DNA from: Patescibacteria group bacterium
Lineage (GTDB): Bacteria > Patescibacteriota > Patescibacteriia > 2-12-FULL-57-11
Direction of reading: 5' to 3'
DNA length: 64,000 nucleotides
Assembly: GCA_004297205.1 (NCBI GenBank)
Contig: SCUL01000002.1
Location: forward strand, 252,594-316,593
A program made the position numbers and the translations under genes. Below, in pieces: positions 37,220 through 62,783 of this stretch. Below the pieces are notes generated by a model. That model ran no database searches, was not told the DNA's origin, and worked only from the letters and a program-made list of their open reading frames with translations. Numbering within the stretch: position 1 is the stretch's first letter; each line of letters begins with the position of its first letter.

Positions 37220-39429
37220 AGCGAGCGTATATCTTCCTCAGGATACCCGTTCTGGCGTAGGAATTCGACGGCCTCCGCGCGCAGCGTCGGATCGAGGGCG
37301 ATGCCGCGCCGGGCGGCGTCCAGCGCCCGCTCGCGGCTCCCCATGGCAACGGCGGCGGCAACGGCCTGCGCATAAGCGTCGGCATCCCCGTTTTCGCCCA
37401 GTTGGTAGTTCAACGCGAACACGGTCTCGTAGTCTCCCACGGAAAGGAGCGCATGGAGGGCGACCGAAATTTCTTCCGGCGGACGGATCTCCGTGAACCC
37501 CGTTCTGCGCGCCGTGGCGAACTCCCGGGCCGCCGTGGCTTCATCTCCCGTCGCGGCAAGCCCGCGGCCGAGGTGCCAATGCGACTCCGGCACGGAGGGA
37601 TCCAAGGCCAAAGCGCGACGGAACACCGCGAGCGCCTCCTCCGGCATGTTGCGCGTGAGGTACAAATTTCCCAGCTGATAATCGACCATCTGCCGTCGCG
37701 GCGCGAGCAACCGCGCCTCTTCAAACGCGGCCGCCGCCGCCTCATAGGAGCCGCCATGGACCGCGGCGAGCAACAGGACGTTGGCGAGCGTGAAGCGTGA
37801 CGAAAACGAGGCGGGGCGGCGCCGGACGGCGTCGCGCAGCAGCGTTTCCGCCTGAGCCAGCGCGAGACGGTCCTCGTCCGCAAGCTGCGCCGACGCGCCG
37901 ACGCGTTTGAATATCTCGTTGGCGATGCGTTGTTCCTGCAACGCACGGTACGGGTTCTCGAACGAAACGATGCCGGCGGTGACCGGGGCAAAATCCGCGA
38001 CCGTGGTCGCGGTGACCGCGCGGTGGACGAGCGCGGATCCGCGCGCCAGCGGGATGACGCCCGCAAGAAGCGTCCACGCCCCGAGTCCCGCCGCACCGAC
38101 GGTGAGGGCGATCCGCGCCGCCGCGGGAAACGGCGCTGCGGATCGCTCCGGCGCGTTCTTCATCGCCGTGAGCAGCGGGACGGTTCCCGCCGCAGCCAGG
38201 AGCGTGGCATGCGTGTCGAACGACGTCAGGTGCGAAACGCCGAACGCCGCGATGCCCCCGAGCGCGGCTGCGGCGGCGCCGCCCGAAAGCACGCCGGACC
38301 GCCGCGCACGCTCGACCGCCCACGCAACGGCGGCAAACAGCGCCAGATACGCGCACAGACCGACCAGTCCCGCGACCGCGGCCACGTCCAGATAGGCATT
38401 GTGCGCGCGGTCGGAAAAGGAATTGCTGACGCCGAAGCGCGTGAAGTCCGTGGGATACAGACGGTCAAGCGCCATGTCGAACTGCTCCAGACCCCAGCCG
38501 AACACCGGCCGCTCACGAAGTGCCTCCCCTGCCACGCGCCACAGCTGGAGCCGTTGGATGATGCTCGGATCGTTCGCGGAAAAGAGCGAGGCGATCCGTC
38601 CCAAAAACGGCGCCTGCCGCACGGCGGGCACGTCGCGGACCAGATAGAGCGCGGGCACGGTCAGCACGCAGCAGACCGCGAGGACGACGCCGGCGATCCG
38701 CCACGACCGGCGGCCGGACCACAGGGCCGCCGCGATCCCCGCGACCGCAAACCCCGCGGCCGCACCCAGAAAGGCGCCGCGCGTCTCGGTCGCAAGAATC
38801 GCGAAACCGCCGAGGCCGAGCGCCACGGAGACGCCCGCCAACCGCCAGCGCGCCGGCAACCGCAGCGCCGCCGTGGCTGCGCCGGCAGTGGCAATGAGCA
38901 GGGCCTCGGCCAAAAAAATGGCGTTCCCGATGGTGGAGACGCTGCGCGATCCGCCCCCGTTGAAGGCGGACCAAAATCCGGGAACAAACCGCTCCAGGGC
39001 CGCCCATGCGGCAACGACCCCCCAGACGCCGAACCAGGACCAGGCATAGACGCGCGCCGGCGTGCCGCCGCGCGCGGCAAGCCGGTGGATGGCCGCGCCG
39101 AGCACCGCGAACGCCGCAAGCGTGACAAATCCGTTCAACCGCTCGCCGTTCCCCCAAAAACTCGTCGCGGGATGCGTGGAAAAAACAACGGCGAGCGCCG
39201 CCGCCGAAAGCGCGGCAAGCACGGCCGTGCCGACCACGCCCGGCCGCGTCGGCCGCGCCGTCCATGCCCACGCCAACAGGGGAAGCAGCAACGCGGCAAG
39301 GACGCGAACGGCGATGTCCTTGGCGGTCACGAACGGATAGCCAAGCCCCTTTGCAAACACCAGGGGCACGAACGCCGCCGCCACGGTCAGGGCGGCCAAG
39401 GCGTGCTCGCGGATCCTGCCGGCGCTCAT
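37216..39429 (-). CDS. O-antigen ligase (Wzy_C)-like membrane protein with C-terminal TPR repeats (paralogue 2)
   Basis: Paralogue of 35015-37219 (conserved ...RPVFGWGLEQF... / ...FDRPHN... loop); start MSAGRIREHAL at 39429 (ATGA overlap with upstream stop). Confidence 0.6.
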   Translation of the reverse strand: MSAGRIREHALAALTVAAAFVPLVFAKGLGYPFVTAKDIAVRVLAALLLPLLAWAWTARPTRPGVVGTAVLAALSAAALAVVFSTHPATSFWGNGERLNGFVTLAAFAVLGAAIHRLAARGGTPARVYAWSWFGVWGVVAAWAALERFVPGFWSAFNGGGSRSVSTIGNAIFLAEALLIATAGAATAALRLPARWRLAGVSVALGLGGFAILATETRGAFLGAAAGFAVAGIAAALWSGRRSWRIAGVVLAVCCVLTVPALYLVRDVPAVRQAPFLGRIASLFSANDPSIIQRLQLWRVAGEALRERPVFGWGLEQFDMALDRLYPTDFTRFGVSNSFSDRAHNAYLDVAAVAGLVGLCAYLALFAAVAWAVERARRSGVLSGGAAAAALGGIAAFGVSHLTSFDTHATLLAAAGTVPLLTAMKNAPERSAAPFPAAARIALTVGAAGLGAWTLLAGVIPLARGSALVHRAVTATTVADFAPVTAGIVSFENPYRALQEQRIANEIFKRVGASAQLADEDRLALAQAETLLRDAVRRRPASFSSRFTLANVLLLAAVHGGSYEAAAAAFEEARLLAPRRQMVDYQLGNLYLTRNMPEEALAVFRRALALDPSVPESHWHLGRGLAATGDEATAAREFATARRTGFTEIRPPEEISVALHALLSVGDYETVFALNYQLGENGDADAYAQAVAAAVAMGSRERALDAARRGIALDPTLRAEAVEFLRQNGYPEEDIRSL

Positions 39430-41615
39430 GCGCCGGGGACGGTCAGCGCCTCTTGGAAACGGCGCGCCTCCTCCGCGAAGGCGGGATCGAGTTCGGCCGC
39501 ACGCTGGGCTTCCAGCGCGGCGAGCGCCGGCTTGCCGAGCGCGGCATAGGTCGCCGCCAGGTGGACGTGCCACTGCGCGTTGTCCGGTTCGTGACGGATG
39601 AGTATCTCGTAGAGCGGAACGATGTCCGCGTAGCGCTTCTGTTCGTCGAACAACGCGATCACGTAGTCCATCTCCTGCCGTCGGGGCGCGTCTTTCCAGG
39701 CCCCGCGGCGACCGAGATCGAGGGACGTGCGCATCTCGTCCGCAGCCGCGGCCCGATCCCCCGCCGCGGACAGCGCCAACCCCAGGAACCAGTGCGGTTC
39801 CTGCAGCGTCGGATCTTCGGCGACGACCGCACGGGTCACCTCGACCGCTTTCTCCGGTTGTCCGCCGAGAAGCAGCGTCTTGGCGAGTTGGAATTTCACG
39901 GCCTGGCGGCGCGGGGAGATGGCGTCCGCTTTTTCGAGCGCGGCAAGCGACCGTTGCAGCCCCTCCGGGGACTCATACAACTCCCCTTCCAGGGCGTACA
40001 GCTGCCCGAGCATGAAAAACAGCGTGAAGTCGCCGGGGTGAAGATCCGTTTCCCGTTCCAGAGCGGCACGGACCGTGCGGACGTTATCTTTGTAAAACGC
40101 CTCGGTGCCTCCGGGACGCGCCGAGCGGTTCACGAAGTCGCGCGCCAGCTGCTTCACGACGTCGCGGCGCTGCACCGACCACGCCGCAAGGGCGAACCGC
40201 CCGTTCCGCGCCCAGGCCGCCGGCGAGTCCGCTTCAAGCGTCCGGAGCGCCGCAAAGCCGGATGGAATGGTCAGAGGACCGGCCACGAGCGCGACGACGG
40301 CAAACACCGACGCGCCCGCAAGCCCCGCGCGCGAGCGGCGCGCGGGAACGGCCGCGGACCCGGACCGCACGCCGAGCCAGGCGAGCAGGCTGAAAAAAAG
40401 CAACGAGGTGGGGAGGGTCTCGAAAAGGAACGCCCCGTGCACGAGATAGGCAGCCAGAGCGCCTGCGGCGCCGGCACCTTCCGCCGTCGTGAGCGTGCCC
40501 GCCCGCAGCCCGCGGACGATCAGCAGGATGCAGACGCCCAGCAATGCAACCCAGGCGAGGACGAGCGGCACGCCTCCGGCAACAAGCAGCTCGAGCGGAT
40601 AGTTGTGCGGCTTGTCGGAAACGGTTTCCGTGAACGAGAAACGCAACAGTTCCGGCCGGTAGTGGCGGTCGAACGCCGCCTGATAATTCTCCGGCCCCCA
40701 CCCCAACAGCGGTCGGGCGCGGAACGCTTCAAGCGCGATCTGCCATTGGAGAAGGCGCGTCGGATCATCGAAATAGGAACGGGCGTCGACGACGCGCACC
40801 ACGGGCGCGGGAAGACCGATGCGGACGAGGACGTCCTGGGGAACGAGGAACAACGAACCCGCGAGGACGCCGACCACGGCCGCGCCAAGGAGGATATGCG
40901 CGCGGCGGCGGCCGCGCGCGCGCAGAGCAACAACCGCACCGCCTGCGAGTGCGGCAGCGGCCAGGCCGACGATGCCGCTGCGCGATCCGGTCAACACGAC
41001 GCCGGCCACAGCGGCCGCCGCGAGCGCGGGGACTGCCCAGCGGATCCGTGACGGAAAAGACGAGAGGCAGAGCGGCGCCAGCGCCGCCGACATGGTCAGA
41101 TACCCTGCCAGGTATGACGGGTTCCCGAACAGTCCGGAGAAACGCGCTTCTTCCTGAAAAAAGGCACGGACGGCGGGAAACAACGCCTCGGCCACGAGCA
41201 TCGCCGTGGTGGCCGCTGCCGTCAGCGCCGACACCAGCCAGAAACGACGCCAGCCGGCGGCATCCAGGATCCGGGGGGCGGAAAGGCACCACACGGCAAG
41301 CGCCGCGGTCGTGACCAAGCCGGTGGCGCGGCTGACGCTCCCCCACAGCGACTGCGCGCCGTCCACGCCGAACAGCGCGGCACCGGCGCTGACGACGACA
41401 AAGACCGGAACCGCCACGAGGAGCGGCCGCGGGACGCGCGCCGCGGCCGGCCGTCCGGCGGCGACGAGTCCGAGCCCGGCGATGAGCGCCAGCAGGAACG
41501 GCATTTTTCCCGAGACCGCCGGAAAGAGCGTCACGGGCACATACCACAACGGACTCGTGGCCAGCGCCCAGGCGCCCCACTTTCCGGCTCGTACGATGCG
41601 GTCGCTCATGGACAT
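39426..41615 (-). CDS. O-antigen ligase (Wzy_C)-like membrane protein with C-terminal TPR repeats (paralogue 3)
   Basis: Paralogue (...RPLLGWGPENYQAAF...DKPHNYPLELL...), TPR tail with W/H..L repeats. Confidence 0.6.
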   Translation of the reverse strand: MSMSDRIVRAGKWGAWALATSPLWYVPVTLFPAVSGKMPFLLALIAGLGLVAAGRPAAARVPRPLLVAVPVFVVVSAGAALFGVDGAQSLWGSVSRATGLVTTAALAVWCLSAPRILDAAGWRRFWLVSALTAAATTAMLVAEALFPAVRAFFQEEARFSGLFGNPSYLAGYLTMSAALAPLCLSSFPSRIRWAVPALAAAAVAGVVLTGSRSGIVGLAAAALAGGAVVALRARGRRRAHILLGAAVVGVLAGSLFLVPQDVLVRIGLPAPVVRVVDARSYFDDPTRLLQWQIALEAFRARPLLGWGPENYQAAFDRHYRPELLRFSFTETVSDKPHNYPLELLVAGGVPLVLAWVALLGVCILLIVRGLRAGTLTTAEGAGAAGALAAYLVHGAFLFETLPTSLLFFSLLAWLGVRSGSAAVPARRSRAGLAGASVFAVVALVAGPLTIPSGFAALRTLEADSPAAWARNGRFALAAWSVQRRDVVKQLARDFVNRSARPGGTEAFYKDNVRTVRAALERETDLHPGDFTLFFMLGQLYALEGELYESPEGLQRSLAALEKADAISPRRQAVKFQLAKTLLLGGQPEKAVEVTRAVVAEDPTLQEPHWFLGLALSAAGDRAAAADEMRTSLDLGRRGAWKDAPRRQEMDYVIALFDEQKRYADIVPLYEILIRHEPDNAQWHVHLAATYAALGKPALAALEAQRAAELDPAFAEEARRFQEALTVPGA

Positions 41616-41745: not shown

Positions 41746-44700
41746 TTAGTAGGAGAGCGTGTTACCGACGATCGGGAGCGAGTCGACGATGGTGATAGAC
41801 GCACCGTTCGTCGAGCCGTCCGACCAGACCACTGCGGGCTGGTTGCCGCCGTTTCCGTTGACACCGGCGTTGCCGATGCCGACGGTCAGGCGCTTGTCCG
41901 TCGCGGCGTCCTGCGTGTCGAGCGTGGCGTAGTACGTCCGCGAGCTGCCGGCAGAGATGTCGGTGTCCGTGAACGCAGCTTCCGTGTACGCGGTCGACGC
42001 GAAGCCGGTCGCGATGTGCCCCGTGTTGGCGAGCGAGTTGCCCGTCGTGACGGAGTCCTTCCACACCTGGATCTCACGGGAGGTCGTGCCTCCAGCGGTC
42101 GAGATCGTCGACCCGATGTCCAGGTTGAGGAGCTTCAGCGTGGCCGTGTAGTTCCCGACGTTCGCGCTGTTGCTGACCACGAAGATCGCAGCCGTCTGGT
42201 TGTCCGCACCGCTGGTGGTGCCGGACGGGGAAGACGAGTGCTTGGCGATCGTGATCTTGGTGCGGAACGCGTCGTGCGGGTTGCCCAACACCTGGAAGAC
42301 GTCCGTGTCCGAGTTCGACGACGAGCTGTTGTAGTCCAACGAGGTCGTCGAGATCGAGAATCCGGAGTCAGCGCCGGTGGCGATGATCGAGCGGTTGGCG
42401 TTGCCGCCTGCCGCCGCCGCGCCGTCCGTGCTGAGGATCATCGTGTTCCAGACCGGATTCAGGACGAGCCGGTGGGTGGAAGACGTGACACCGCCATCCA
42501 CGAAGGACGAGAAGTCCGACACCACCTTGATCACCACCGAACCGCTCCGCGGAACGGTCAGGTTGTTGATGTTGTCGAAGATCGCGACCGGGGTGACCGA
42601 GTTGCCCGTGGCATTGGAGCCGTCGAGCGAGGCGATCGTCCCGCCGTACTGCGTGCCTGAGGTGGCATCGATGAGCTTCAGGTTCTTGAGCGTACCGGTC
42701 GCGGAGACGAAGGCCGTCCCCGGGCCGCCGGCCGCAACGACGTGCGTCATGACATCGCCGATCACGAGCTTCGTGATGTTGATGTTTTCCTGCACCGTCG
42801 CGTCGAACTTGAAGCGGGCGAGTTCAATGCCCGTGCTGCCCAGAACCTGCGTCGCACGGATCGGCGTGGACGAGTCGGGGTAGACCGACAGGTTGCCGTT
42901 CGTGGAGATGTAGACGTTCTGGAGTTCCGTCGGGCCGTTGCCGTCGGAGTCGGAGACGTCCGTGCCGGTGGCGACACCGGTGGCGGACACCTTGTCGACG
43001 TCGACGACGCCGTCACCCTGGACGTCGGTCGCCGTGGCGCCGGACTTGATGTCGGCCGTCACACGGAAGACCTGCGTCGCGCCGGCCGTGACGCGGATCG
43101 CCGCGGACGGAGTGAACGTGTAGTTGGTCGTCACCGTGTCCGTGAGCGTGCCCACGGTGTTGCCGACCTGGGTCAGCGTCGAACCGACGACTTTCCAGAG
43201 CTTCAGATTCTGGAAGGTGTCGGCAAGCGTGTCGCCGCCCGTGGAGGCGTCGCCGATCACGATCTGCGTGATGTCGGCGTCTTCGCCGCCGCCCGTGACC
43301 ACGAACTGGCCGATGTTGACGCCCTGGGCGCCGAGCACACCGGTCGGGTTCCCAGACGTGCGGTCCGTGAAGGACGAGTCCTCCGACGTGACCACGGCGC
43401 CGCTCTTGACCGTCACCGTGCGGCCGGTTGCCGAAGAGGTGCTGATCGAGTCGAGCGTGACCGTGCCCTGGGCGTTGGACGAACCAGCGGAGAGCGAGGC
43501 CAGGAGCGTGTCGTCGGTCCCGATCGTGGCATCCGTCAGGTCAGCCACGAAAGACAGCGTCTTTGTGGAACCGGCCGGGATGACGAACGAGTTGCCGAAG
43601 GTGTAGTCGATGTCGGTCGTGCCGCCATCGCAGGTCTGCGTCGCATCGGTCGTGCCGACCTGGGAACCATCAAGCCTGAGCTTGACGTTCTTCAGAATGC
43701 CGGCGCTGTCGTTGGAAGCGCAGAACGCGGAGAGGTTGTCGACCTTCACGTCTTCACCCGCGGCGGTGAACGTCCACTTGGCGAGCGTCACCGCAGTGGC
43801 GCCGTCCGGAACGTTCGTGGCCGGGGAGTCCGAAGCCGTGGAGATCGTCAGGCGGCCGGAGTTGATGGTCGTGGAGACCGCGACTTCCGGAGACGCGCCG
43901 TCGTTCGGCTGGACCACGGAGAAGGCGTTGGTCGTGCCCTTCACCGCGACCGTGTAGACCTGGTAGTTCTTGTCCCAGACGATGGCGTCGGTGCGCTCCT
44001 GGATGGAGAACCGGTAGGTGCGACCGGAACCGGCGATGATGTCACCGACGAGTCCGAGCTGCTTGACCTGGCCGTTCGTCACCTTGTAGCCGCCGTCCGT
44101 CATGCCGGAGAGGTCGAAGGTGACCTTGGAGCCGGTCATGGTCGGAACCGTGGAACCGAGCTGGGTCACGCCGTCCATGAGCTTGAAGTTCTGGAGGGCG
44201 TTGTCCTGCACGGAACCGATCTGGGTGAAGGTCAACTTCTTGACGATCATGTCCTGATCAGCCGCCGTCACCTTGAAGCGCCACAGTTCGTAGCTCGTCT
44301 GGCCCGGATCGACCGTGTTGTTGGCCGTCGGGGTGACGCTCAGGAACTGCGCCTGGCCGAGATCGGAGACCGTGGAGATGGTCATGGTGTTGCCGATCGC
44401 CGAGCCGGAGACCGCCGTGGAACCAGTCATCGTGATGTCGGCCGCCTCAACGCTCATCGAGAGGGTCTTCGAAGAGTTGGACGCGCCGCCATCGGAGTTG
44501 ATGGCCAGGTTGCCGCGGACCATGACTTCCTTCGTGCCACCGGCCGGGACCGAGATGTTCAGCCCAGTGAAGGTGATCACGCCGGAGGAGATGGTCGTAG
44601 AGCGGCCGAGCTGCGTGTCGAGCGTGTCGCCCTCATAGAGGTAGACCTCGCCGAGGTTGGAGTCGGCCGTGATGCCGCCGCGGCGGACCTTGAGGCCGGA

Positions 44701-45615
44701 GATCGTCGCCGAGCCGTCAGCGGAAGCGGTGAGCTTCAGCTTGAGGAACGGGATCAGGGCCTGGGCCGTGCGGTTGCCGCTGTTGTCATCAACGATCGTC
44801 ATCGGCGCCGGGTTGTTGGAGCCCGTGGCGAGCGTCAGACCGGAGCCGGTCCCGACCGGGGGCGTCGTCGTCCCGCCGAGCTGCGCAGTGTCGTTGAACT
44901 GCGAATTGCCGGTGGAGATGTCCGTGCCGTTCGTGTAGACCGACAGGTCGAGCGTGGTGGTGACCACGAACTCGGTGCGGAAGCGGTTGGCGGTCCAGCC
45001 GTCAGCCGTGATCTTCCGCTTCGAGGTGCCGTCGATGTAGTAGATGTCCGGGGACGAGGCCGTTTTCACGAGCGCGCCCGTCGGATAGGTGTTGGACGTG
45101 ATGTCCGCGCCCAGCGTGTAGTTGCCGAACACGGAGTCGTCGACGTCGCGGACCCGGGTGGCCCAGCCGGAGCCCCAGAGCGCCGACGCGACGGCCTCCG
45201 AAGAGATGCCGCGAATAACGCCGCCGGGTTCCACGGCGTAGACCGTCGGAACCGTATTGATCTTCATGAGGTACGCGCCCGGGCGATGAACGATGTTCAA
45301 ACCCGAGAGCGGAATCGACGCCAGGTCGGCGTCGGAGACCGTCGTGACACCGCCGAAGTCGGGGTACCACGAAATATAGACCTTCTGATCAGGGAAAGCG
45401 TGGCGCTTGCCATCGGTGCCGACGTAGTAGACGGCCTTCAGGCTTCCCTTGACGAGGGACCCGGCCGGCAACGTAATCGCCGCTTTGGCAACCAACGGGG
45501 CGGCGAACGTCGCCACACCCATGGACCAAGCGATGGTCGTTGCGACCACGCCCCACGAGAGCGCCTTCTTTCCCATCTGAACTGCCTTTTGCATAGATTG
45601 GGAGAATGCTTGCAT
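41746..45615 (-). CDS. giant Ser/Thr/Gly-rich secreted/surface-anchored protein (1289 aa)
   Basis: N-terminal hydrophobic anchor, conserved N-domain (...AVYYVGTDGKRHAFPDQKVYISWYPDF...), then >1000 aa low-complexity T/S/G/N-rich beta-rich repeats; opposite-strand ORF is Arg-rich junk. Confidence 0.7.
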   Translation of the reverse strand: MQAFSQSMQKAVQMGKKALSWGVVATTIAWSMGVATFAAPLVAKAAITLPAGSLVKGSLKAVYYVGTDGKRHAFPDQKVYISWYPDFGGVTTVSDADLASIPLSGLNIVHRPGAYLMKINTVPTVYAVEPGGVIRGISSEAVASALWGSGWATRVRDVDDSVFGNYTLGADITSNTYPTGALVKTASSPDIYYIDGTSKRKITADGWTANRFRTEFVVTTTLDLSVYTNGTDISTGNSQFNDTAQLGGTTTPPVGTGSGLTLATGSNNPAPMTIVDDNSGNRTAQALIPFLKLKLTASADGSATISGLKVRRGGITADSNLGEVYLYEGDTLDTQLGRSTTISSGVITFTGLNISVPAGGTKEVMVRGNLAINSDGGASNSSKTLSMSVEAADITMTGSTAVSGSAIGNTMTISTVSDLGQAQFLSVTPTANNTVDPGQTSYELWRFKVTAADQDMIVKKLTFTQIGSVQDNALQNFKLMDGVTQLGSTVPTMTGSKVTFDLSGMTDGGYKVTNGQVKQLGLVGDIIAGSGRTYRFSIQERTDAIVWDKNYQVYTVAVKGTTNAFSVVQPNDGASPEVAVSTTINSGRLTISTASDSPATNVPDGATAVTLAKWTFTAAGEDVKVDNLSAFCASNDSAGILKNVKLRLDGSQVGTTDATQTCDGGTTDIDYTFGNSFVIPAGSTKTLSFVADLTDATIGTDDTLLASLSAGSSNAQGTVTLDSISTSSATGRTVTVKSGAVVTSEDSSFTDRTSGNPTGVLGAQGVNIGQFVVTGGGEDADITQIVIGDASTGGDTLADTFQNLKLWKVVGSTLTQVGNTVGTLTDTVTTNYTFTPSAAIRVTAGATQVFRVTADIKSGATATDVQGDGVVDVDKVSATGVATGTDVSDSDGNGPTELQNVYISTNGNLSVYPDSSTPIRATQVLGSTGIELARFKFDATVQENINITKLVIGDVMTHVVAAGGPGTAFVSATGTLKNLKLIDATSGTQYGGTIASLDGSNATGNSVTPVAIFDNINNLTVPRSGSVVIKVVSDFSSFVDGGVTSSTHRLVLNPVWNTMILSTDGAAAAGGNANRSIIATGADSGFSISTTSLDYNSSSSNSDTDVFQVLGNPHDAFRTKITIAKHSSSPSGTTSGADNQTAAIFVVSNSANVGNYTATLKLLNLDIGSTISTAGGTTSREIQVWKDSVTTGNSLANTGHIATGFASTAYTEAAFTDTDISAGSSRTYYATLDTQDAATDKRLTVGIGNAGVNGNGGNQPAVVWSDGSTNGASITIVDSLPIVGNTLSY

Positions 45616-47522: not shown

Positions 47523-47590
47523 AAGGCGGTGTGCCTTTATGCAGTTGGGATACGGTATGCGGCATCAAACGCTTGCATTATCCACATCAT

Positions 47591-47612
47591 TTGTATACGC
47601 TTGTGTATACAA
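47591..47612. promoter_or_regulatory. perfect palindromic operator candidate TTGTATAC-N6-GTATACAA
   Basis: 8-bp perfect inverted repeat (47591-47598 / 47605-47612) ending 4 nt before ATG of the HTH gene and overlapping its candidate -10 (TACGCT 47596-47601; -35 TTGCAT 47573-47578). Confidence 0.5.
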
Positions 47613-47616
47613 ACAC

Positions 47617-47952
47617 ATGTCGACGCCTGATCGCATCATCCGCGTTTCCGTCTCCGAAGCCGCCCGCCTCTTTGGCGTGAGCATGCAGACGGTCCGCCGC
47701 GCCATAGCCGACAAGGAGGTCCTCTATGTGGTCGTGGGAAACCGCTACAAGATCAATTTCGAGAGCCTGGTCACCTGGTCCCAGCGCTCCGTCACGGTCC
47801 GCAATAAAACCGAACGCCGCGGTATCGGACAATTCGTCCAAGCCTGGCGGATCCGCAACACCCGCTACTCGCCCAACCCACAGATGTTCACCCCGCCGCC
47901 GGGTCCGGCGGCCCGCCGCGGCAACGGCGACGAAACGGGCTCCGTGAAGTAG
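47617..47952 (+). CDS. helix-turn-helix DNA-binding protein, excisionase/MerR-like HTH_17 family
   Basis: MSTPDRIIRVSVSEAARLFGVSMQTVRRAIADKEVLYVVVGNRYKI... (HTH excisionase-family pattern); start at ATG 47617 (first part of track ORF lies in promoter region). Confidence 0.6.
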   Translation: MSTPDRIIRVSVSEAARLFGVSMQTVRRAIADKEVLYVVVGNRYKINFESLVTWSQRSVTVRNKTERRGIGQFVQAWRIRNTRYSPNPQMFTPPPGPAARRGNGDETGSVK

Positions 47953-47956
47953 GGGG

Positions 47957-47962
47957 TTGACA
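47957..47962 (+). promoter_or_regulatory. TTGACA -35-like box upstream of lipoprotein A (weak -10 GATGCT at 47980-47985)
   Basis: Perfect TTGACA immediately after HTH stop; -10 element poor, so promoter status uncertain. Confidence 0.25.
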
Positions 47963-48026
47963 CGATCGCTTTTTTAACCGATGCTGGCGTATCCCACGGC
48001 CGGCACGCGCCGGAGAAGGAGGATGT

Positions 48027-48809
48027 GTGGGGTTTCCCAGTTCTTTGATGTCGGCGGTCGGCGTTGCCGCCCCGCTGATGGCCATGGCCGCCCTGTCGGG
48101 CTGCGGACTGATCCTGGACCTCGATCCTTGGCCGCCCGCGCCGCCCGATGCGAGCGCCGGCGTGGACGGCGGTGATATCGACGCGGCCGTCGACGGCGGT
48201 CCGGACGGGATGCGCGACGCGTTCCTTCCGGACGCGCCCGCCGACGCAACGGCAGATGCCGCGCTCGATGCCGGGATGTTCGATGCGGCGTCCGACGCGG
48301 ACGCTGGATCGGACGATGCGGGAACGGACGCCGACGCCGGTCCGCCCGAAGGGTGCGCGGACGACTCGATCGAGCAGCACTATCCGGTCGATCCGGGAAC
48401 GGGACTGCTCGTCATGGTCGGCTGCGACGGCGCTCGCACGCAATGCGAGGCCGAAGAGCTGTGCGCACCGGGCTGGCGGCTTTGCACGTTCGCCGCGTAT
48501 CGGACGCGCGGCGGGACGACGATGCCCGCCACCGCCCGCCGCTGGCTTGCGGGCTGCGTCCGCGAAATGTGCGGGGACGTGACGGGTCCGGGAACGGCGG
48601 TCTGCGCAAGCTGCGCGACCGGGACCGGCACCACGCTCGAGCTGTCGTACCAGTGCGGCAGCGGAGAACCGGCGCGATCGGAAGACGATTGCAATGTCGG
48701 CATTGCGGCCGCGCCCGACGACTGGCACCTGGTCTCCCGTTCGCTGGAATGCATCATGGCCAGCGCCGAACCGGCCTCCGACCTCGGTGGAGCCACCTGC
48801 TGCCGCTGA
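48027..48809 (+). CDS. secreted lipoprotein, uncharacterised Cys-rich family (paralogue A)
   Basis: GTG start with AAGGAGG RBS (48016-48022); lipobox ...AALSGC; Asp/Ala/Gly/Pro-rich linker; C-terminal ~150-aa domain with ~12 conserved Cys (...VGCDGARTQCEAEELCAPGWRLCTFAAYRTRGG...ATCCR). Confidence 0.7.
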   Translation: MGFPSSLMSAVGVAAPLMAMAALSGCGLILDLDPWPPAPPDASAGVDGGDIDAAVDGGPDGMRDAFLPDAPADATADAALDAGMFDAASDADAGSDDAGTDADAGPPEGCADDSIEQHYPVDPGTGLLVMVGCDGARTQCEAEELCAPGWRLCTFAAYRTRGGTTMPATARRWLAGCVREMCGDVTGPGTAVCASCATGTGTTLELSYQCGSGEPARSEDDCNVGIAAAPDDWHLVSRSLECIMASAEPASDLGGATCCR

Positions 48810-48828
48810 GCGACTGGAATCACCGTGC

Positions 48829-48866
48829 CGCCCGCCCGTATCAACGGTCGGGCGCTTCTTTTTGCC
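48829..48866 (+). terminator. rho-independent terminator of lipoprotein A
   Basis: CGCCCGCCCG-tatcaa-CGGTCGGGCG stem (one G.U) followed by CTTCTTTTT. Confidence 0.7.
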
Positions 48867-48869
48867 GGG

Positions 48870-48898
48870 TTGACAAAATCCGGAAAAAGCGCTATATT
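48870..48898 (+). promoter_or_regulatory. consensus sigma70 promoter TTGACA-17-TATATT for lipoprotein B
   Basis: TTGACA 48870-48875, exact 17-nt spacer, TATATT 48893-48898; transcript would start ~48905 with a 5'-terminal stem-loop AATACCGC-agtgaaac-GCGGTATT (48909-48932). Confidence 0.7.
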
Positions 48899-48987
48899 CC
48901 AGCGTCCGAATACCGCAGTGAAACGCGGTATTGCGGCCAAACTTCGGGTCCATTCAGGTTCCCCAACGTCAACCCCAAGGAGCAGGA

Positions 48988-49842
48988 ATGCCCCTCCACC
49001 GTCTCGTTCTTTCCCTCGTCATCCTCACGGTCGCCACCCCCGGATGCATGCTCGACCGCAGCGGACTCGCGTACAACTGTGAGGCCCGCCTCATGGACGA
49101 CGCGGCGCTGCACACGGACGGCGCCATCCCCGGATGGTGCCTGGACCGTCTCCGCGACGGCTCCACAGCCGACGCCGGGGCGCCCCCGGACGCAGGTCCG
49201 GAAGACGGCGGCGATGCGGGAGACGCGGAGCTGCCCGACGCCGGACCGTCCGACGCCGGAACGGATGCCGGCAGAGATGCCGGACCGGAAGACGGCGGAC
49301 CGCCTGACAGCGGCCCTCCCGACGCCGGACCGCCGGATGCGGGACCGTCCGACGCCGGAACGGATGCCGGCAGAGATGCCGGACTCCCCCCTGTCGGCTG
49401 CGACGACGGCACGGTCGAACAACCGTACGTCGGCCGCGACGACATGGTCGGCTGCGACGGCGCGCTGACACAGTGCGAGGCCGCGGCGCTGTGCGGCGCA
49501 GGCTGGCATCTGTGCACCTTCGCCGAGTACCGGACCCGCGGCGGGGCCGTCGCTCCGGCGACGACCTACCGCTGGCTGGCGGGCTGCACGCGCGAGATGT
49601 GCGGCGGGCTGGTCGGTCCGGGAACGGCGGTCTGCGCGAGCTGCGCGCCGGGCACGGGTACGTCGATCGACGTCTCGTATGACTGCAGCGCGTCCCGCGC
49701 GCACGCCGAGGCCGCCTGCAATCAGGGGATCACGGCGGATACCGATCCGATCGGTAACCACCTTGTCTCCCCCGCGCTCGAGTGCGTCCGGGCCCGGATC
49801 TTCCCGGCAGCCATGACGCTCGGCGCAACGTGCTGCAGGTAG
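48988..49842 (+). CDS. secreted lipoprotein, uncharacterised Cys-rich family (paralogue B)
   Basis: ATG 48988 with AAGGAG RBS (48977-48982); lipobox LTVATPGC; DAG-repeat linker (PDAGPSDAGTDAGRDAG...); conserved C-terminal Cys-rich domain ending ATCCR. Confidence 0.75.
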   Translation: MPLHRLVLSLVILTVATPGCMLDRSGLAYNCEARLMDDAALHTDGAIPGWCLDRLRDGSTADAGAPPDAGPEDGGDAGDAELPDAGPSDAGTDAGRDAGPEDGGPPDSGPPDAGPPDAGPSDAGTDAGRDAGLPPVGCDDGTVEQPYVGRDDMVGCDGALTQCEAAALCGAGWHLCTFAEYRTRGGAVAPATTYRWLAGCTREMCGGLVGPGTAVCASCAPGTGTSIDVSYDCSASRAHAEAACNQGITADTDPIGNHLVSPALECVRARIFPAAMTLGATCCR

Positions 49843-49849
49843 GCACGGC

Positions 49850-49896
49850 CCCGGTTCGACGCATCGACAGCGATGCGCGGACCGGGTCATTTTTTT
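49850..49896 (+). terminator. rho-independent terminator of lipoprotein B
   Basis: Long imperfect hairpin (inner CGCATCG-acag-CGATGCG, outer CCCCGGTTCG/CGGACCGGG) followed by ATTTTTTT. Confidence 0.75.
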
Positions 49897-49957
49897 CGAC
49901 CCTTCCCCTTTTGCGCGGCGCCCGCTAGGGTGGCCGTGCGTGCCCAACGGAGGATGC

Positions 49958-50671
49958 ATGCGAACTCTCACCTCTGCGCTCCTGCTCCTGATGGCAGCCG
50001 GCGCAGGCCCCGGCTGCTCGCTCATCACGAATCCCGACACGAGCCGCCTGTACCCGCATCCGCGGGAGGACGGCGGAGCGGCCGATGCCGGACCGCACTC
50101 TGACGCGGATGTCGACGGCTCTTTGCCGCCGACGGATGCCGACCTGCCGGACGCGGACCTTCCGCCTCCGCCCGACGCCGACGTGCCGCCCGCGGACACG
50201 GGCGTCCCCGCCGGCCCCGGCTGCCTGGATGGGACGGTGGATCAGCCCTACCCCGGCCGCAGCGACATCGTCGGCTGCGACGGCGCGGTCGACCAGTGCG
50301 CGGCTTCCGCCCTGTGCGGCGCCGGCTGGCATCTCTGCGGCTGGGACGAATTCCAGACGCGGACGGGCGCCGCCACCGCCACGACCGTCCGCTGGATCGC
50401 CGGCTGCGCACGGGAGGCATGCTCGCTCGATCCGATGCGGGTCCGCGAAGGTGTCTGCGGCGACTGCACCTCAGGAGGAGCGATGCTGCCGATGGCCGTG
50501 TCGTTCGCCTGCAGCGGTGCCTCGCCGCCGCGCGAGGAGATCAGTTGCGACGTCGGCGTCGTGGCCTTCACCGACCCGATCGGTCGCCGTATCGGCAGCA
50601 CGACCGCACCGTGCCTCCGGGCCGAGGCGTTCCCGACGCGAGAGCGCTACGGCGCTACCTGCTGCAGATAG
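49958..50671 (+). CDS. secreted lipoprotein, uncharacterised Cys-rich family (paralogue C)
   Basis: ATG 49958 with GGAGG RBS (49949-49953); lipobox AGAGPGC; Asp/Pro/Ala-rich linker; conserved Cys-rich domain (...IVGCDGAVDQCAASALCGAGWHLCGW...ATCCR). Confidence 0.75.
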   Translation: MRTLTSALLLLMAAGAGPGCSLITNPDTSRLYPHPREDGGAADAGPHSDADVDGSLPPTDADLPDADLPPPPDADVPPADTGVPAGPGCLDGTVDQPYPGRSDIVGCDGAVDQCAASALCGAGWHLCGWDEFQTRTGAATATTVRWIAGCAREACSLDPMRVREGVCGDCTSGGAMLPMAVSFACSGASPPREEISCDVGVVAFTDPIGRRIGSTTAPCLRAEAFPTRERYGATCCR

Positions 50672-50672
50672 C

Positions 50673-50723
50673 AAAAACCCCGACTCCAACATCGCAGGAT
50701 GTCGGAGCCGGGGAATCTTTTTT
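50673..50723. terminator. bidirectional rho-independent terminator shared by lipoprotein C (+) and gene 50725-52500 (-)
   Basis: Hairpin CCCCGACTCC...GGAGCCGGGG with extended inner stem, flanked by AAAAA (50673-50677) and TTTTTT (50718-50723). Confidence 0.75.
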
Positions 50724-50724
50724 A

Positions 50725-52500
50725 TTACTCCAACGCGCCGCTGACGCGCGTCCCCTTTTCTGCGGCGCGCGTATCAGCCGGGACGTCGGTGGCCAAATAT
50801 CCCGTCGTCGCTTCCGTCGGTGCGCCCTCGGCATCCTGGCCCGACAGCCGCACGCTGCGCACGATCACCGCTTCCGCATCGATCTGATCGGTCGTCGGAC
50901 GGAAGGCCAGCGCTGCGGCAAAGGTGAAGGCACCGTCCCCGGCGATGACGTCCGGCCGCCACACCAGCGCGTTACCGACCTGCCGCGGCACGCCGGAGAC
51001 GGAGGCGCTGAACTTGCCAGCGTAGGTCACGTTGCCGCCGAGATCGACGCGTAATTCCGTGTCTTGCATGATCAAGCCGGGTTCAGCGCGCACCACCACC
51101 CAGTACTCGGTTTTTTCATCAACGCGCGGCGGCAGAGGCCCGCGGCCGAGCTGTTCCCCTTCTTCGGTATAGTAGCGAAGTTCTGCGGCCAGCGTCGGCG
51201 CGGCGGCTTGGATGCCGACACGCTCGGTCGACACGAAACCGACGCGCTCTCCGGTCCCTGCCCCATACGCGATTGCACGGACCGTCATCAGTTTCGGATC
51301 GGCCTCGGGACGCAACGGAACGCGGACGACCGTTTCATAAGAGTCGTTCGGTTCGAGCGTGAAACGTGCATCTGCCGGGACACCTTCGATACGCGAACCG
51401 CCCGGCAAGGCCGTCGGATCGACCATATCCCACGGCTCCGGAAAAACGCGCAGTGACCCCCAATCAATCCGATGGTCGCCGCTTGCGACCCCGACCACCA
51501 CTTCAAGCCCGTGGTCACCCAAGCCGGGTTCGAAGCGTGAGATCCGTAACTCATTCCACGCGGTTGCCGCACTCATCCCGAGCTCTTGCAGTATCGACAC
51601 AGGACGTTTCGCGTCGGAGATAGAAATCAACCAATCTTCTTCTGCCGCGAGTTCTTCCAAAACAATGGACTCCTGAGCGCCGGCGGAAAACTCGCGATCC
51701 ACAAATACCCGCTGCTCATTGCCATGCGCTATGACCAGGTGGAGACTATCAATCGCGTTTGCCGAGTCGTTGGTAAACAGAACCGGGCGGACGCTGCCGG
51801 GAGCCGCGATATGCGCATCGGCGATCTCCGGCACGCCCAGTCGGAGCGCCGTCCCGGCGATGCGAATCTGGCTGCTCCCCTTTTCCTGCACAGGAGGTCG
51901 TCCGGAAGGCGTTCCTGTCAGCGTCGCCTCAAGCACGGCGTCCGTGTCATGCCCGACAAGCACATAACCGGAAACGCGCACCGTGCCGTTGCCGCCGGGG
52001 CCGACGGTGCCGAGCGGAATGACGCCGTGCGCGGTCAGCGGCTCGACTGCGGCATCCGTCGCGCGCTCCGCTTCAAGCGACGTGGTGCGGAATCCGTCCG
52101 GCAGCGAGATGGCGAGCGAGGCGTTCTCAAGCGGCAGCTTGCCGCGGTTCTCGTAATGCACCACGAAGCCGACCGTATCCGCGGCACGGACCTCCGCATC
52201 GCTGGCAGTCACGCTCAAGCGCACCGGCGCGACCGCTCCCGGCGCAAGAACGAACGAACCGAGCGTCACGGCAAGCGCCAGCACCAGGGCTGCGGCCAGC
52301 GCATCGAACAGGAACAGGGCGGCGCCGAACGACCCCGGCCGGTTGTAGCGGCGGGCGAAGTGCGCGCGCACCGGCGCCGTGATGCGTTGCGCCGGATGCG
52401 TGAAGAGATGGAGGGAGCCAGGCACGATGCGCGTCGGCCGCGTTTTTTTTGCGCCGGCCAGCGGGACGATGGTGCGCGGCGGAATGTTCGGGGAAGCCAT
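50725..52500 (-). CDS. membrane-anchored hypothetical protein (N-terminal TM, large extracytoplasmic beta-rich region)
   Basis: 591 aa, TM segment AALFLFDALAAALVLALAV near N-terminus, no recognisable catalytic motifs; 3-nt gap to upstream gene. Confidence 0.5.
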   Translation of the reverse strand: MASPNIPPRTIVPLAGAKKTRPTRIVPGSLHLFTHPAQRITAPVRAHFARRYNRPGSFGAALFLFDALAAALVLALAVTLGSFVLAPGAVAPVRLSVTASDAEVRAADTVGFVVHYENRGKLPLENASLAISLPDGFRTTSLEAERATDAAVEPLTAHGVIPLGTVGPGGNGTVRVSGYVLVGHDTDAVLEATLTGTPSGRPPVQEKGSSQIRIAGTALRLGVPEIADAHIAAPGSVRPVLFTNDSANAIDSLHLVIAHGNEQRVFVDREFSAGAQESIVLEELAAEEDWLISISDAKRPVSILQELGMSAATAWNELRISRFEPGLGDHGLEVVVGVASGDHRIDWGSLRVFPEPWDMVDPTALPGGSRIEGVPADARFTLEPNDSYETVVRVPLRPEADPKLMTVRAIAYGAGTGERVGFVSTERVGIQAAAPTLAAELRYYTEEGEQLGRGPLPPRVDEKTEYWVVVRAEPGLIMQDTELRVDLGGNVTYAGKFSASVSGVPRQVGNALVWRPDVIAGDGAFTFAAALAFRPTTDQIDAEAVIVRSVRLSGQDAEGAPTEATTGYLATDVPADTRAAEKGTRVSGALE

Positions 52501-57209: not shown

Positions 57210-60200
57210 CTACGGGCAGACGACCCCGTTGTCGATCACTCCGTTGCAGTCGTCGTCGAGCCCGTTGCACACCTCGGCGGATCCGAAGGTGCTGGGGCTG
57301 CAGGGGCCGTAACCGGATCCGTCCGCGAAGCACGTCGTCGTGCCCGCGGCGCAGACGCCCGGCATGCCGGTGCTGCAGGAGAGACCGGCGCCAGCGGTGC
57401 AGGCGACACAGGTCTCGTCGACCATGCCGTTGCAGCTGTCGTCGATCGCGTTGCCGCACACCTCGGGGTTCCCGCCGGTCAGCAGCACGCACGGTCCGTA
57501 CCCGCTGCCCGAGGGCAGGCAGGTGGACTCGCCGCGCGCGCAGATCCCGGTGAGGCCCGTGGCACAGTTGATGACCGTGCCGGGCGTGCAGGAGGCGACG
57601 TCGTCGGTGACGCCGTTGCAGTCGTCGTCGGTACCGTTGCTCGGGATCTCCGAGACGGGACCGGCGACCGGCAGGCAGGCCGTGAACGACCGCCCGTCGG
57701 GACGGCAGGTCATCGAGCCCATGGTGCAGAGTCCGAGCAGGCCCGTGAGGCAGCTCTCGCTCAGACCCGGGGTGCAGACGCACCCCTCGTCCGCGGTGCC
57801 GTCGCAATCCGAGTCGATCCCGTCACCGGGGCACGTCTCGGGCAGCGGGGCGACCGTCGGGGTGCACGGCGTCCAGCTGCGACCGCTGTCGCAGGTCTGG
57901 ATGCCGGTGCTGCAGGCGCCGTCGAGGCCCGTCGTGCACGCGCGGCTCGCGCCGCTCGTGCAGAGGCAGCCATCGTCGGCGGTGCCGTCGCAGTCCGAGT
58001 CGAGCCCGTCGCCGCACAGGTCCGAGCTCGGACCGGTGGTCGACGTGCAGTGGCTCCAGCCGCGGCCGTCCGCGTCGCAGGTCTGCGTCCCGGCGGAGCA
58101 CACGCCCGGCAGCCCCGTGGGGCAGCCGCGCGTCGTTCCACCGATGCAGGTGCAGACCTCCTCGTCCGCGTTGGCGTCACAGTCGTTGTCGACGCCGTCG
58201 CAGACTTCGGAGGTGGGTCCCGTCGCGCCGACGCAGGGGCCGTAGCCCCGGCCGTCGGAACGGCAGGTGTGGGTGCCCGCGCCGCAGGCGCCGGCGAGGC
58301 CCGTGCTGCACGCCTCGGTCAGACCGGGGGTGCAGCTGCAGACCTCTTCGTCGGCGAATCCATCGCAGTCGTCGTCGAGGCCGTTGCAGGTCTCGCCGGT
58401 CGAGGGGATGGTCGGCAGGCAGGCCGTGAAGCCGCGCCCGCCGGCGATGCAGGTCATGATGCCCGCGCTGCAGACGCCCGGGAGCCCCGTGAGGCAGCCC
58501 GCACTCACGCCAACGGCGCAGGTGCAGACCTCCTCGTCGGCCGGACCGTCACAGTCGTCGTCGACCCCGTTGCAGGTCTCGGACGACGGCGCGATTCCCG
58601 GCAGACAGGGACCCCAGGTGAGGCCCGCCGCGCAGGTTTGGAGACCCGTGCTGCAGACGCCGGACTGGCCCGTCAGGCAGGAGCGCGTGGCCCCGGCCGT
58701 GCAGGAGCAGCCCTCGTCCGCGGTGCCGTCGCAGTCGTTGTCCGCACCGTCGGCGCAGACGTCGACCGTGGGGGCCGTCGTCGGCAGGCAGGTGCCCCAG
58801 CCGCGTCCGTCGCCGGAGCACGTCTGGAGGCCCGCGGCGCAGGCGCCGGGCAGGCTCGTGATGCAGCCGCGCGTCGTGGAGGCGGTGCAGGTGCACACCT
58901 CCTCGTCGGCGAGGCCGTCGCAGTCGTTGTCGCTGCCGTCGCAGATCTCGGAGCTCGGTCCCGCCGAAGGCAGGCACGGGCTCCAGGTGCGTCCGGCGTC
59001 GCAGGTCTGCGTGCCGGTGCCGCAGACGCCGAGCCGCTCCGTGTCGCACGTCCGGGTCACCCCGGGCGTACAGGAGCAGCCCTCGTCCGCCTCACCGTCG
59101 CAGTCGTTGTCGAGGCCGTCCGCGCAGACGTCGACGCTCGGCGCGCTCGTCGGCGTGCAGGGGCCGAAGCCCCGCCCGTCGGCGTCGCAGCGCTGGGTGC
59201 CGGCCGCGCACACGCCCGGCAGCGACGTCACGCAGGCGCGCGGCGCGAGGGGGGTGCAGGTGCACACGTCCTCGTCCGCGATCCCGTCGCAGTCGTCGTC
59301 CCGGCCGTTGCAGACCTCGAGGGTGGCGACGCCCGTCGGGATGCAGGCATCCCAGCGGCCGCCGGTGCAGGCCTGGAGGCCCGCGCTGCAGACGCCGTCG
59401 AGGCCGCTCGTGCACGGACGGCTCGCGCCGCTCGTGCAGGTGCAATCCTCGTCGGCGGTGCCGTCGCAGTCGGTGTCGAGGCCGTCGCCGCAGGCGTCCG
59501 CGGAGCGGACGAAGCCGCTCAGGCAGGCGCCCCAGCCGCGTCCGTCGCTGTCGCAGGTCTGGGTGCCGGCCGCGCAGCTGCCGGGCTGACCGGTGTCGCA
59601 GGCGCGCGTCGTCCCCGCGGGGCACGCGCACACCTCCTCGTCGGCCGTCCCGTCGCAGTCGTCGTCCTGGCCGTTGCAGACCTCGGCCGAACCCGCGGCG
59701 CCGGGGAGGCAGGCCGTGAAGCCGCGTCCCCCGCTCACGCAGGTCATGGTCCCGCCGGCGCAGACGCCGGCCAGGCCCGTGAGGCAGCTCGCGGAGGCGC
59801 CGACGGTGCAGGTGCACACGCCGTCGTCGTCCGCCAGCCCATCACAGTCGTTGTCGATGCCGTCGCAGATCTCGAGGCTCGGACCCGCCGAAGGCAGGCA
59901 CGGGCTCCAGATGCGTCCGGCATCGCAGGTCTGCGAGCCGCTGCTGCACGCGCCGAAGAGTCCCGTCAGACACGACTGGCTTGCGCCCGCCGTGCACGAG
60001 CACCCCTCGTCCGCGCTGCCGTCGCAGTCCGAGTCGACGCCATCGCCGCAGATGTCCACGGTGGGAGCGAGGCTCGGGATGCAGGCGTTCCAGCCGCGGC
60101 CATCACTGGCGCACGTCTCGACGCCCGCGCTGCAGAGACCGGGCAGCGACGTCACGCAGGGGCGGGTCGAGAGGCGCGTGCAGGTGCACACTTCCTCGTC

Positions 60201-62438: not shown

Positions 62439-62783
62439 TCTGCCTCCCATGTTCATGTTCCTCCGCAGTAGTCGTTTTGGCCTCCATACCGGCGATGCCC
62501 GCGCCGGCGTGAAGGACGTTGTCTCCGGATTGTCAACCTGGCGCTTTCCCGCATGGGCCAGACGTCGCCTCTGCCGCGTTCCCGACATGCGGAACGCGGT
62601 GAACATCGCTGCCTGACGCCGGCCGAGGGGGAAAGTCGAATCCTCAGCCGCCGTCTTCAGGGATGCTGCAAATCCGGGCAAATACAGAACCCGAACGAAC
62701 GCGGCACCTCACCAAAATCCTGGGCTTTTGTCAACCCTTATGTAACGAGCTACTGAGATTCCCCCGCCAGGCGGGGGAATGAC

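Follow-up and report, generated by a model that had tools for sequence, protein, structure and literature searches.

The window analysed here, a stretch of 64,000 nucleotides (64 kb) on the 855,898-bp contig SCUL01000002.1 of an uncultured Patescibacteria (candidate phyla radiation, CPR) bacterium known from a metagenome-assembled genome, carries three head-to-tail open reading frames (ORFs) on the + strand, which we designate genes A, B and C. The three genes are paralogues and share one architecture, in which a hydrophobic signal sequence ending in Cys is followed by an acidic linker and a Cys-rich C-terminal domain, hereafter the head. In its predicted structure, the head has a C-type lectin-like domain (CTLD) fold. 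On balance, we favour the reading that A, B and C are lipid-tethered 'lollipop' proteins that would bind ligands at the cell surface, with the variable loops of the head setting the ligand specificity. CPR bacteria are thought to live attached to other cells, and few of their attachment proteins are known; tethered lectin-fold heads, encoded in variable copy number at a conserved envelope locus, provide a candidate attachment set for this group.

Gene A (EPO33_02800; 48027..48809, +) encodes 260 residues from a GTG start at 48027, gene B (EPO33_02805; 48988..49842, +) encodes 284 residues, and gene C (EPO33_02810; 49958..50671, +) encodes 237 residues; all three are annotated as 'hypothetical protein' at NCBI. 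Over the full length, identity to A is 56% for B and 40% for C, and a family profile built from 41 relatives matches A, B and C alone in the window, with E values from 7e-47 to 2e-51. The NCBI record begins gene A at a TTG (48045) rather than at the GTG; the GTG start is supported by the conserved N-terminus, which reads MGFPSSL in A and MGFSRSL in the relative P0007. The B protein is 100% identical to the relative P0152, and the C protein is identical to P0003. In A, the signal peptide ends in the lipobox LSGC (Cys26), the linker spans residues 27-103 (48105-48335), and the head spans residues 104-260 (48336-48806). In B, the signal peptide ends in TPGC (Cys20) and is followed by a two-Cys segment, which forms short helices at residues 31-57 in a low-confidence model; the acidic repeat linker runs to residue 131 (49048-49380), and the head spans residues 132-284 (49381-49839). 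In C, the signal peptide ends in GPGC (Cys20), the linker spans residues 21-81 (50018-50200), and the head spans residues 82-237 (50201-50668). The three-part architecture, which had been described by the first-pass annotation made from the bare sequence, is thus borne out in all three proteins.

The head comprises 153-157 residues and ends in GATCCR in A, B and C, in agreement with the 'ATCCR' ending reported earlier. It contains 14 Cys in A, B, C and most relatives, and 12 in a subgroup, so that the earlier count of 12 for the three paralogues has to be revised. The family signature reads GCxDGTxEQ...MVGCxG...QCxAxxLCxxGWHLC...RW[IL]AxC...GATCCR. Scans of A, B, C, the 41 relatives and ten multi-domain relatives with Pfam, NCBIfam and PADLOC assigned no family to the domain, a profile search of PDB sequences returned noise only (E >= 0.76), and every named homologue is annotated 'hypothetical protein'. 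A word-indexed search had retrieved only 4 proteins and had pointed to an orphan domain; this idea was overturned by an exhaustive HMMER search of 1.84 billion cluster representatives, which gave 218 matches at E <= 1e-3 and 42 at E <= 1e-10. The domain is therefore not confined to the source genome, and the named sources include Candidatus Uhrbacteria, Myxococcales, Polyangiaceae, 'Deltaproteobacteria' and Elusimicrobia. The searches define a family of at least 218 cluster representatives that is missed by Pfam, NCBIfam and PADLOC and merits a database entry.

Most family members repeat the layout of A, B and C, in which a Cys-terminated signal peptide and an acidic low-complexity linker precede the domain. 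Elsewhere in the family, the domain is found fused to Peptidase_M23, to a beta-lactamase-like enzyme together with F5/8 type C, or to type IV pilin N-termini, and further relatives carry PKD, EGF and LVIVD modules. These fusions indicate that the domain is a portable extracellular module, recurring as an accessory of pilins, M23 peptidoglycan hydrolases and beta-lactamase-like enzymes. Additionally, we observed a divergent subfamily (P0020, P0042, P0050 and P0051) with 3-4 tandem copies of a domain variant, the motif of which is GCADGTxEQTF...GMVGCAG..TW.NR..LC..GYR.AT..EW. P0020 is a divergent four-repeat version from the cultured myxobacterium Myxococcus guangdongensis (WP_254040885.1), and as such is an experimentally tractable relative.

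The head was modelled by AlphaFold2 from a 41-sequence alignment, giving a predicted local distance difference test score (pLDDT) of 94.7 and a predicted template modelling score (pTM) of 0.89. The structural neighbours of the model include LYVE-1 (scores of 8.7 and 8.5), aggrecan G1 (8.2), langerin, the mannose receptor, LLT1 and tetranectin (7.6), as well as snake-venom C-type-lectin-like proteins; bacterial adhesive heads are matched too, namely the tip of Bdellovibrio Bd2740 (7.0), the C-terminal domain of Legionella Lcl (6.6) and invasin (6.4). Sequence identity to the structural neighbours is at most 16-19%. The Foldseek search against the PDB was not significant (best E 0.94, TM 0.39-0.48), the top matches again being mostly CTLDs, and the search against BFVD returned nothing significant; the fold resemblance is therefore remote. 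In the model, the head is built from a strand, two helices, a strand, a long loop region and the terminal strands, which is the order of elements in CTLDs.

Specific sequence features of the head agree with this assignment. CTLDs carry the motif WIGL at the strand that matches residues 64-71 of the head, and this strand holds a nearly invariant RW[IL]A[GS]C in the family; of the 41 relatives, 39 have the pattern W[ILV]x[GSA]C. Two Cys are invariant, C38 where the first helix ends and C151 in the last strand, and we take them to match the C1-C4 disulfide pair that is canonical in CTLDs. The N-terminal beta-hairpin of the head is flanked by the Cys pair C7/C25, an arrangement that presumably resembles the 'long-form' CTLDs. 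The stretch AxxLCxxGWHLCTxxEY, in turn, is presumably akin to the G-[WY]-R-L-P-T-x-x-E-W motif of FGE-sulfatase, DUF1566 and FISUMP; in divergent multi-repeat relatives, among them P0050, it reads GYRSATAAEF, with a sub-threshold match to FISUMP (E 0.052; cut-off 41.65 bits). The earlier statement that the Cys-rich domain is not obviously a known family holds at the level of sequence families, where all scans were null, but not at the level of the fold. The first-pass annotation had named a confident assignment to a known family with known function as what would refute it; this applies in part, as a lectin fold could be assigned, but no characterised family with known function. Judged by the model, the head represents a new sequence family of the known CTLD fold, heavily decorated with putative disulfides and present in CPR, Myxococcota and a few other lineages.

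The two halves of the head differ in conservation. Among the syntenic copies, the mean pairwise identity is 58% for residues 5-71 and 31% for residues 72-146, while conservation is highest at the very C-terminus, GATCCR. A conserved scaffold combined with a variable ligand-binding loop region is the usual pattern of CTLDs. In CPR, diversity-generating retroelements (DGRs) are frequent, and what they typically diversify is the C-terminal region of proteins with a C-type-lectin fold. A, B and C might accordingly be thought of as DGR targets, as they have the fold of DGR variable proteins, published work that ties CPR to C-type lectins concerns DGRs (PMC8144416, PMC11661182), and the variation of the domain lies in its C-terminal half. 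We consider this scarcely credible: the 64-kb window contains no template-repeat-like copy of A, B or C (repeat search and self-BLAST), and self-BLAST yields only the paralogues, at 69-77% identity and over the conserved rather than the variable half. Moreover, Pfam finds no reverse transcriptase in the 15 neighbouring ORFs, the head matches neither FGE-sulfatase nor DUF1566, the typical DGR-target families, and the conservation of GATCCR at the very C-terminus does not suit a DGR target. For the 64-kb window, the lack of a template-like repeat led us to reject the DGR hypothesis.

The 14 conserved Cys are presumed to form seven disulfides that rigidify the head, although Cys presence/absence patterns among the relatives were not decisive for the connectivity. 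Such a density, 14 Cys in ~150 residues with a CxxC (C85/C88) that at least 90% of relatives retain, could also be expected of a metal-binding or redox protein, and a 1823-aa protein with Cu-binding_MopE repeats is encoded ~6.5 kb away. However, the number of Cys is even and does not vary beyond 14, or 12 in the subgroup; the protein is exported and its fold compact and confidently predicted, as is usual for structural disulfides, and we recognised none of the His, Met or Cys cluster motifs that mark known metal sites. A metal or redox role in place of a disulfide-stabilised binding head is therefore very improbable in our view.

Next, the signal peptides and linkers were considered. As lipobox we accepted the PROSITE-type pattern [LIVMFWSTAG]2-[LIVMFYSTAGCQ]-[AGS]-C, with no charge in the preceding 6 positions. 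The claim that all three proteins carry a lipobox proved correct for A (AALSGC; LSGC) and failed for B (ATPGC; TPGC) and C (AGPGC; GPGC), both of which have Pro at position -2; a PROSITE-like lipobox is present in 78 of 151 family representatives. The linkers are 61-111 residues long, with 62-74% D/A/G/P, a pI (isoelectric point) of ~4.05 and 14-26 D+E against 1-6 K+R, and the earlier description of an acidic Asp/Ala/Gly/Pro linker is fully confirmed. In a full-length model of B, the linker (~residues 58-132) shows pLDDT below ~55 and no secondary structure, while the head exceeds 90, which is consistent with a disordered tether. The computed reach of the linkers at full extension is ~22-40 nm, an upper limit. 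The linker of B also contains an internal 64-nt direct repeat that encodes PDAGPSDAGTDAGRDAG and whose two copies (49222-49285 and 49321-49384) are 89% identical and lie 99 nt apart. This repeat and a family of copies with a 15-nt period show that the linker grows by slippage-type duplication. A literature search on lipoproteins of Uhrbacteria and Patescibacteria found nothing.

The export signals also bear on whether the proteins stay on the cell. A, B and C might instead be effectors that are set free to act on competitors or hosts, for example toxins, bacteriocins or protease inhibitors: many toxins and inhibitors contain small disulfide-rich secreted domains, the structural neighbours include the snake-venom proteins, and B and C, which have no canonical lipobox, are possibly cleaved and released. 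Yet no immunity-like or dedicated secretion gene was recognised beside the array, the family as a whole keeps a long disordered stalk behind a signal peptide that ends in Cys, which points to tethering, and the domain serves elsewhere as an accessory module of enzymes and pilins. We regard release as improbable.

Together, these features suggest how the tethered proteins would work. The Sec signal peptide ends in a Cys that is most likely lipid-modified, the motif being clear in A and atypical in B and C, and the lipid would fix the processed protein to the outer surface of the cytoplasmic membrane. The acidic D/A/G/P segment of 61-111 residues would act as a flexible spacer that carries the CTLD-fold head of ~153 residues off the membrane. 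The N-terminal half of the head would be the conserved scaffold, and the variable C-terminal loops would form the presumed ligand site, which would lack the classical Ca2+ site. Given the variable loop region, each of the three copies would offer a binding surface of its own. Probable ligands are glycans or surface proteins of a host or neighbouring cell, or an extracellular polymer; the M23 and pilin fusions and the envelope-glycan neighbourhood of the genes point to cell-surface glycans or proteins.

Several observations weigh against this picture of tethered lectin-fold binders. Neither A, B and C nor the 41 relatives match the hidden Markov models (HMMs) of Lectin_C, Xlink, DUF1566 or FGE-sulfatase, and for Lectin_C there is no match even at E <= 10. 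None of A, B, C and the 41 aligned relatives carries the Ca2+/sugar motifs (EPN or QPD plus WND). The Pro at position -2 takes B and C outside the lipobox pattern, and these two proteins may instead be processed by signal peptidase I or keep the signal peptide as their anchor. Finally, the head is acidic (pI 4.4-4.9), which makes polyanions, as bound by Link modules and Lcl, unlikely ligands.

The gene neighbourhood was compared among five syntenic genomes: that of the window, L001 (GCA_041643055.1), L004 (Candidatus Uhrbacteria RIFCSPHIGHO2_02_FULL_57_19), L009 (GCA_964355835.1) and L011 (GCA_964648865.1). The common gene order begins with Wzy_C/TPR genes, a ~1250-aa ORF of no assigned family, a DUF5667 anti-sigma factor, an extracytoplasmic function (ECF) sigma factor and an HTH_17 gene, and continues with 1-3 lectin-fold genes, a ~590-aa ORF on the opposite strand, a GHL15/FG-GAP gene and two glycosyltransferase family 4 (GT4) genes. 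The number of lectin-fold copies is three in the window, at least three in L001 (where the contig end truncates the array), three in L011, and one each in L009 and L004. The assembly of L011 (GCA_964648865.1, contig CAZYLV010000002.1, also handled as L003) is labelled 'uncultured Gammaproteobacteria bacterium'; this label is probably wrong, since the L011 locus matches the Patescibacteria/Uhrbacteria loci gene for gene.

This synteny bears on the main rival explanation, that the heads bind the cell's own envelope polysaccharide, made by the neighbouring genes, and thereby organise or anchor a glycocalyx or wall layer. In all five genomes the array is in strictly conserved synteny with three Wzy_C/TPR genes, the GHL15/FG-GAP gene and two GT4 genes; a membrane tether with a spacer also suits reaching a wall or capsule layer, and the M23 peptidoglycan hydrolase fusions of relatives suggest cell-envelope ligands. 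The array is, however, transcribed opposite to the glycan genes, with a bidirectional terminator in between, and a copy number of 1-3 together with fast loop divergence (31% identity) is better suited to changing foreign ligands than to a single conserved self-glycan. We therefore consider binding of the own polysaccharide possible, if rather unlikely, and retain the recognition of ligands on other cells or polymers as the preferred reading.

In a neighbour-joining (NJ) tree, a C-type clade is common to the genomes (C of the window, L011_3 and L001_2), and the N-terminal anchor types are shared as well, that of A with L011_2 and P0007, that of B with L009_1 and P0006, and that of C with L011_3 and P0019. 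The heads of A and B, on the other hand, group with those of their own genome: A and B of the window share 61% identity and L011_1 and L011_2 58%, whereas comparisons between genomes give 41-51%. This pattern, read from identity matrices and the NJ tree, suggests that tandem copies have undergone gene conversion or exchanged domains. The order of A-type and B-type genes possibly differs between the window (48027-49842) and L011 (8001-9622), an observation that is tentative, L011_1 having no detectable B-like N-terminus.

The genes that border the array are conserved too. The upstream HTH_17/excisionase-family gene (47539..47952, +) matches Pfam HTH_17 (E 1.9e-7) and TIGR01764 (E 4.6e-9), and its true start is probably downstream of 47539, as the syntenic genes encode 105-112 aa. 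An HTH_17 gene lies at the equivalent position and on the same strand as the array in L009 (7448-7765) and L011 (7557-7895), and an HTH_17-like coding sequence upstream of the single copy in L004 was seen by eye only. The gene of the window also has a weak PADLOC match to mad1 (E 2.5e-4), and it could be a local regulator of the array. On the other side, the convergent 591-aa gene (50725..52500, -) has weak Pfam matches to DUF11 and NPCBM_assoc only and no confident family; ORFs of 587-614 aa occupy the matching position and orientation in L001, L004, L009 and L011. More speculatively, and with a low likelihood in our estimate, the slot from the HTH_17 gene to the ~590-aa gene might be a host- or partner-recognition cassette of Uhrbacteria-like CPR, in which 1-3 heads are duplicated, lost and recombined. 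On this view, the set of heads would decide to which cells or polymers the ultra-small bacterium can attach, and the cassette would be a non-DGR route to diversifying the very fold that DGRs diversify in other CPR lineages.

Regarding expression, the first-pass annotation had described each gene as a separate cassette with a near-consensus promoter, a strong Shine-Dalgarno (SD) sequence and its own rho-independent terminator. The SD sequences are present as described, AAGGAGG at 48016..48022 for A (4 nt before the GTG start), AAGGAG at 48977..48982 for B and GGAGG at 49949..49953 for C, all on the + strand. The promoters are less uniform, and only that of B is near consensus. It reads TTGACA-17-TATATT (48870..48898, +), agrees with the consensus in 11 of 12 positions, and is the sole sigma70-like site found by the consensus scan in 3.5 kb, where shuffled sequence gives 0.3. 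Counterparts lie upstream of the corresponding genes in L009 (TTGACA-17-TATATT), L001 (TAGAGT as -10) and L004 (TAAACT as -10). The candidate promoter of A (47957..47985, +) has a perfect -35 TTGACA (47957-62), a 17-nt spacer and, as its best -10, GATGCT (47980-85), which is weak (3 of 6 positions); the consensus scan did not report it. Upstream of C, neither the consensus scan nor a looser regular-expression search recognised a sigma70-type promoter, and the looser search found none upstream of A or the C-type orthologues either. The C-type copies in L001 and L011 leave little room for a promoter, since only ~30-40 nt separate the upstream terminator from the SD.

Terminators were evaluated by folding. 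The terminator of B (49847..49897, +) consists of a hairpin (49847-49888) and a U7 tract, with a free energy of -30.5 kcal/mol and a z-score of -4.5, and 0 of 200 shuffles were equally good. A bidirectional terminator (50678..50723) serves C on the + strand and the convergent 591-aa gene on the - strand; its hairpin (50678-50713) has A/T tracts on both sides, reaches -24.1 kcal/mol on the + strand (z -4.4), and was also detected on the - strand with 16 pairs. After A, a terminator-like element (48827..48864, +) comprises a hairpin (48827-48855) followed by UUCUUUUUG; the minimum free energy (MFE) structure shows the GC hairpin and then CUUCUUUUU, with z -0.7 over the 64-nt stretch folded, so that a terminator here is plausible and not statistically distinctive. 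The claim of a terminator for each gene thus stands firmly for B and C and plausibly for A.

The 5' stem-loop proposed for the B transcript was found at 48906..48936 (+), near the predicted 5' end. Hairpins occupy the equivalent position below the TTGACA-17-TAnnnT promoter in L001, L009 and L004 (single-sequence folds); they are individually weak (z about -1.2 to -1.4), and that of L004 is unrelated in sequence to the others. RNAalifold did not recover a common hairpin from the four B-type leaders, as that of L004 fails to align with the others. The conserved position lends modest support to a functional 5' stem-loop on the B transcript. Rfam detected no RNA family in the region (E <= 1) or in the whole window (gathering threshold), and three sub-threshold matches are attributable to chance. 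Taken together, B combines a strong predicted sigma70-type promoter of its own with a 5' hairpin, an SD and a terminator. A has a perfect -35, a 3-of-6 -10 and a plausible terminator, and C a strong terminator and no recognisable promoter; the strong monocistronic signals once ascribed to all three genes, from which abundant secreted proteins had been proposed, are fully true of B alone.

Some further features of the window were recorded. The MopE-repeat protein is encoded at 57210-62681 (-) by an ORF of 1823 aa whose Cu-binding_MopE 'putative metal-binding motif' repeats match Pfam at E 3e-92, and it is Cys-rich and exported-looking; we take this protein type to be associated with Myxococcota. 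At the counterpart position, L001 has a protein of 1743 aa with a faint precomputed MopE match and L009 one of 872 aa with no family on record. Three consecutive paralogues of 734, 785 and 729 aa (35015-41615, -) combine an O-antigen-ligase-like Wzy_C domain with C-terminal TPR, and are followed by a 1289-aa ORF that has no Pfam match (41746-45615, -); ORFs of 1244-1252 aa are found there in L009 and L011. ARAGORN called two unusually long tRNAs, tRNA-Gly(CCC) of 80 nt at 4469-4548 (-) and tRNA-Arg(TCG) of 94 nt at 34872-34965 (+). The whole-window Rfam scan at the gathering threshold reported no tRNA, and the ARAGORN calls are false positives, atypical or intron-containing.

The proposed design can be compared with several known systems. 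With the CTLD superfamily, including the Link modules of LYVE-1, TSG-6 and aggrecan G1 as well as langerin, the mannose receptor and tetranectin, the head shares the WIGL-like motif, the Cys of the first helix and last strand, and the arrangement of conserved scaffold and variable loops. It differs in having 14 Cys instead of 4-6, in lacking EPN/QPD and WND and any Lectin_C or Xlink HMM match, and in belonging to bacterial, predicted lipoprotein-tethered proteins; Link modules, moreover, bind hyaluronan and are basic, whereas the head of A, B and C is acidic. The bacterial and phage C-type-lectin-fold binding modules, namely the DGR variable proteins (Bordetella phage Mtd, TvpA), FGE-sulfatase, DUF1566 and FISUMP, share a motif of the type G-[WY]-[RH]-L-x-T-x-x-E-[WY] that follows the first helix and is GWHLCTxxEY in A, B and C. 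In contrast to these modules, the head gives no significant HMM match, the window holds no template repeat and the 15 neighbouring ORFs no reverse transcriptase, and the heavy disulfide decoration is not typical of that group.

Two bacterial adhesins come closest in design. Lcl of Legionella pneumophila is a lollipop adhesin made of an anchor, a collagen repeat stalk and a lectin-like DUF1566 ligand-binding head (PMC11162425). Like Lcl (PDB 8q4e), A, B and C have a (predicted) N-terminal anchor, a repetitive stalk and a C-terminal lectin-like head. The stalk of Lcl, however, is a trimeric collagen triple helix, whereas theirs is acidic, rich in D/A/G/P and apparently disordered, and the head of Lcl is basic, has no disulfides and binds sulphated glycosaminoglycans, whereas theirs is acidic, has 14 Cys and does not match the DUF1566 HMM. 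Bd2740 of Bdellovibrio bacteriovorus is the Ca-free C-type-lectin-fold tip of an adhesive MAT fibre involved in prey handling, and belongs to a paralogous adhesive set with diversified tips (PMC10769870). The likeness to Bd2740 (PDB 8oks) lies in a bacterial C-type-lectin-fold head that has no Ca2+ motif, in the paralogous set, and in the presumed surface display on a bacterium living on other bacteria. The differences are that Bd2740 sits on a trimeric fibre, whereas A, B and C have a lipoprotein-type anchor, a disordered linker and no sign of trimerisation, and that no sequence similarity is detectable between them. Since both the fold and the lollipop design are familiar from these systems, the putatively tethered heads of A, B and C extend known biology and do not constitute a new category.

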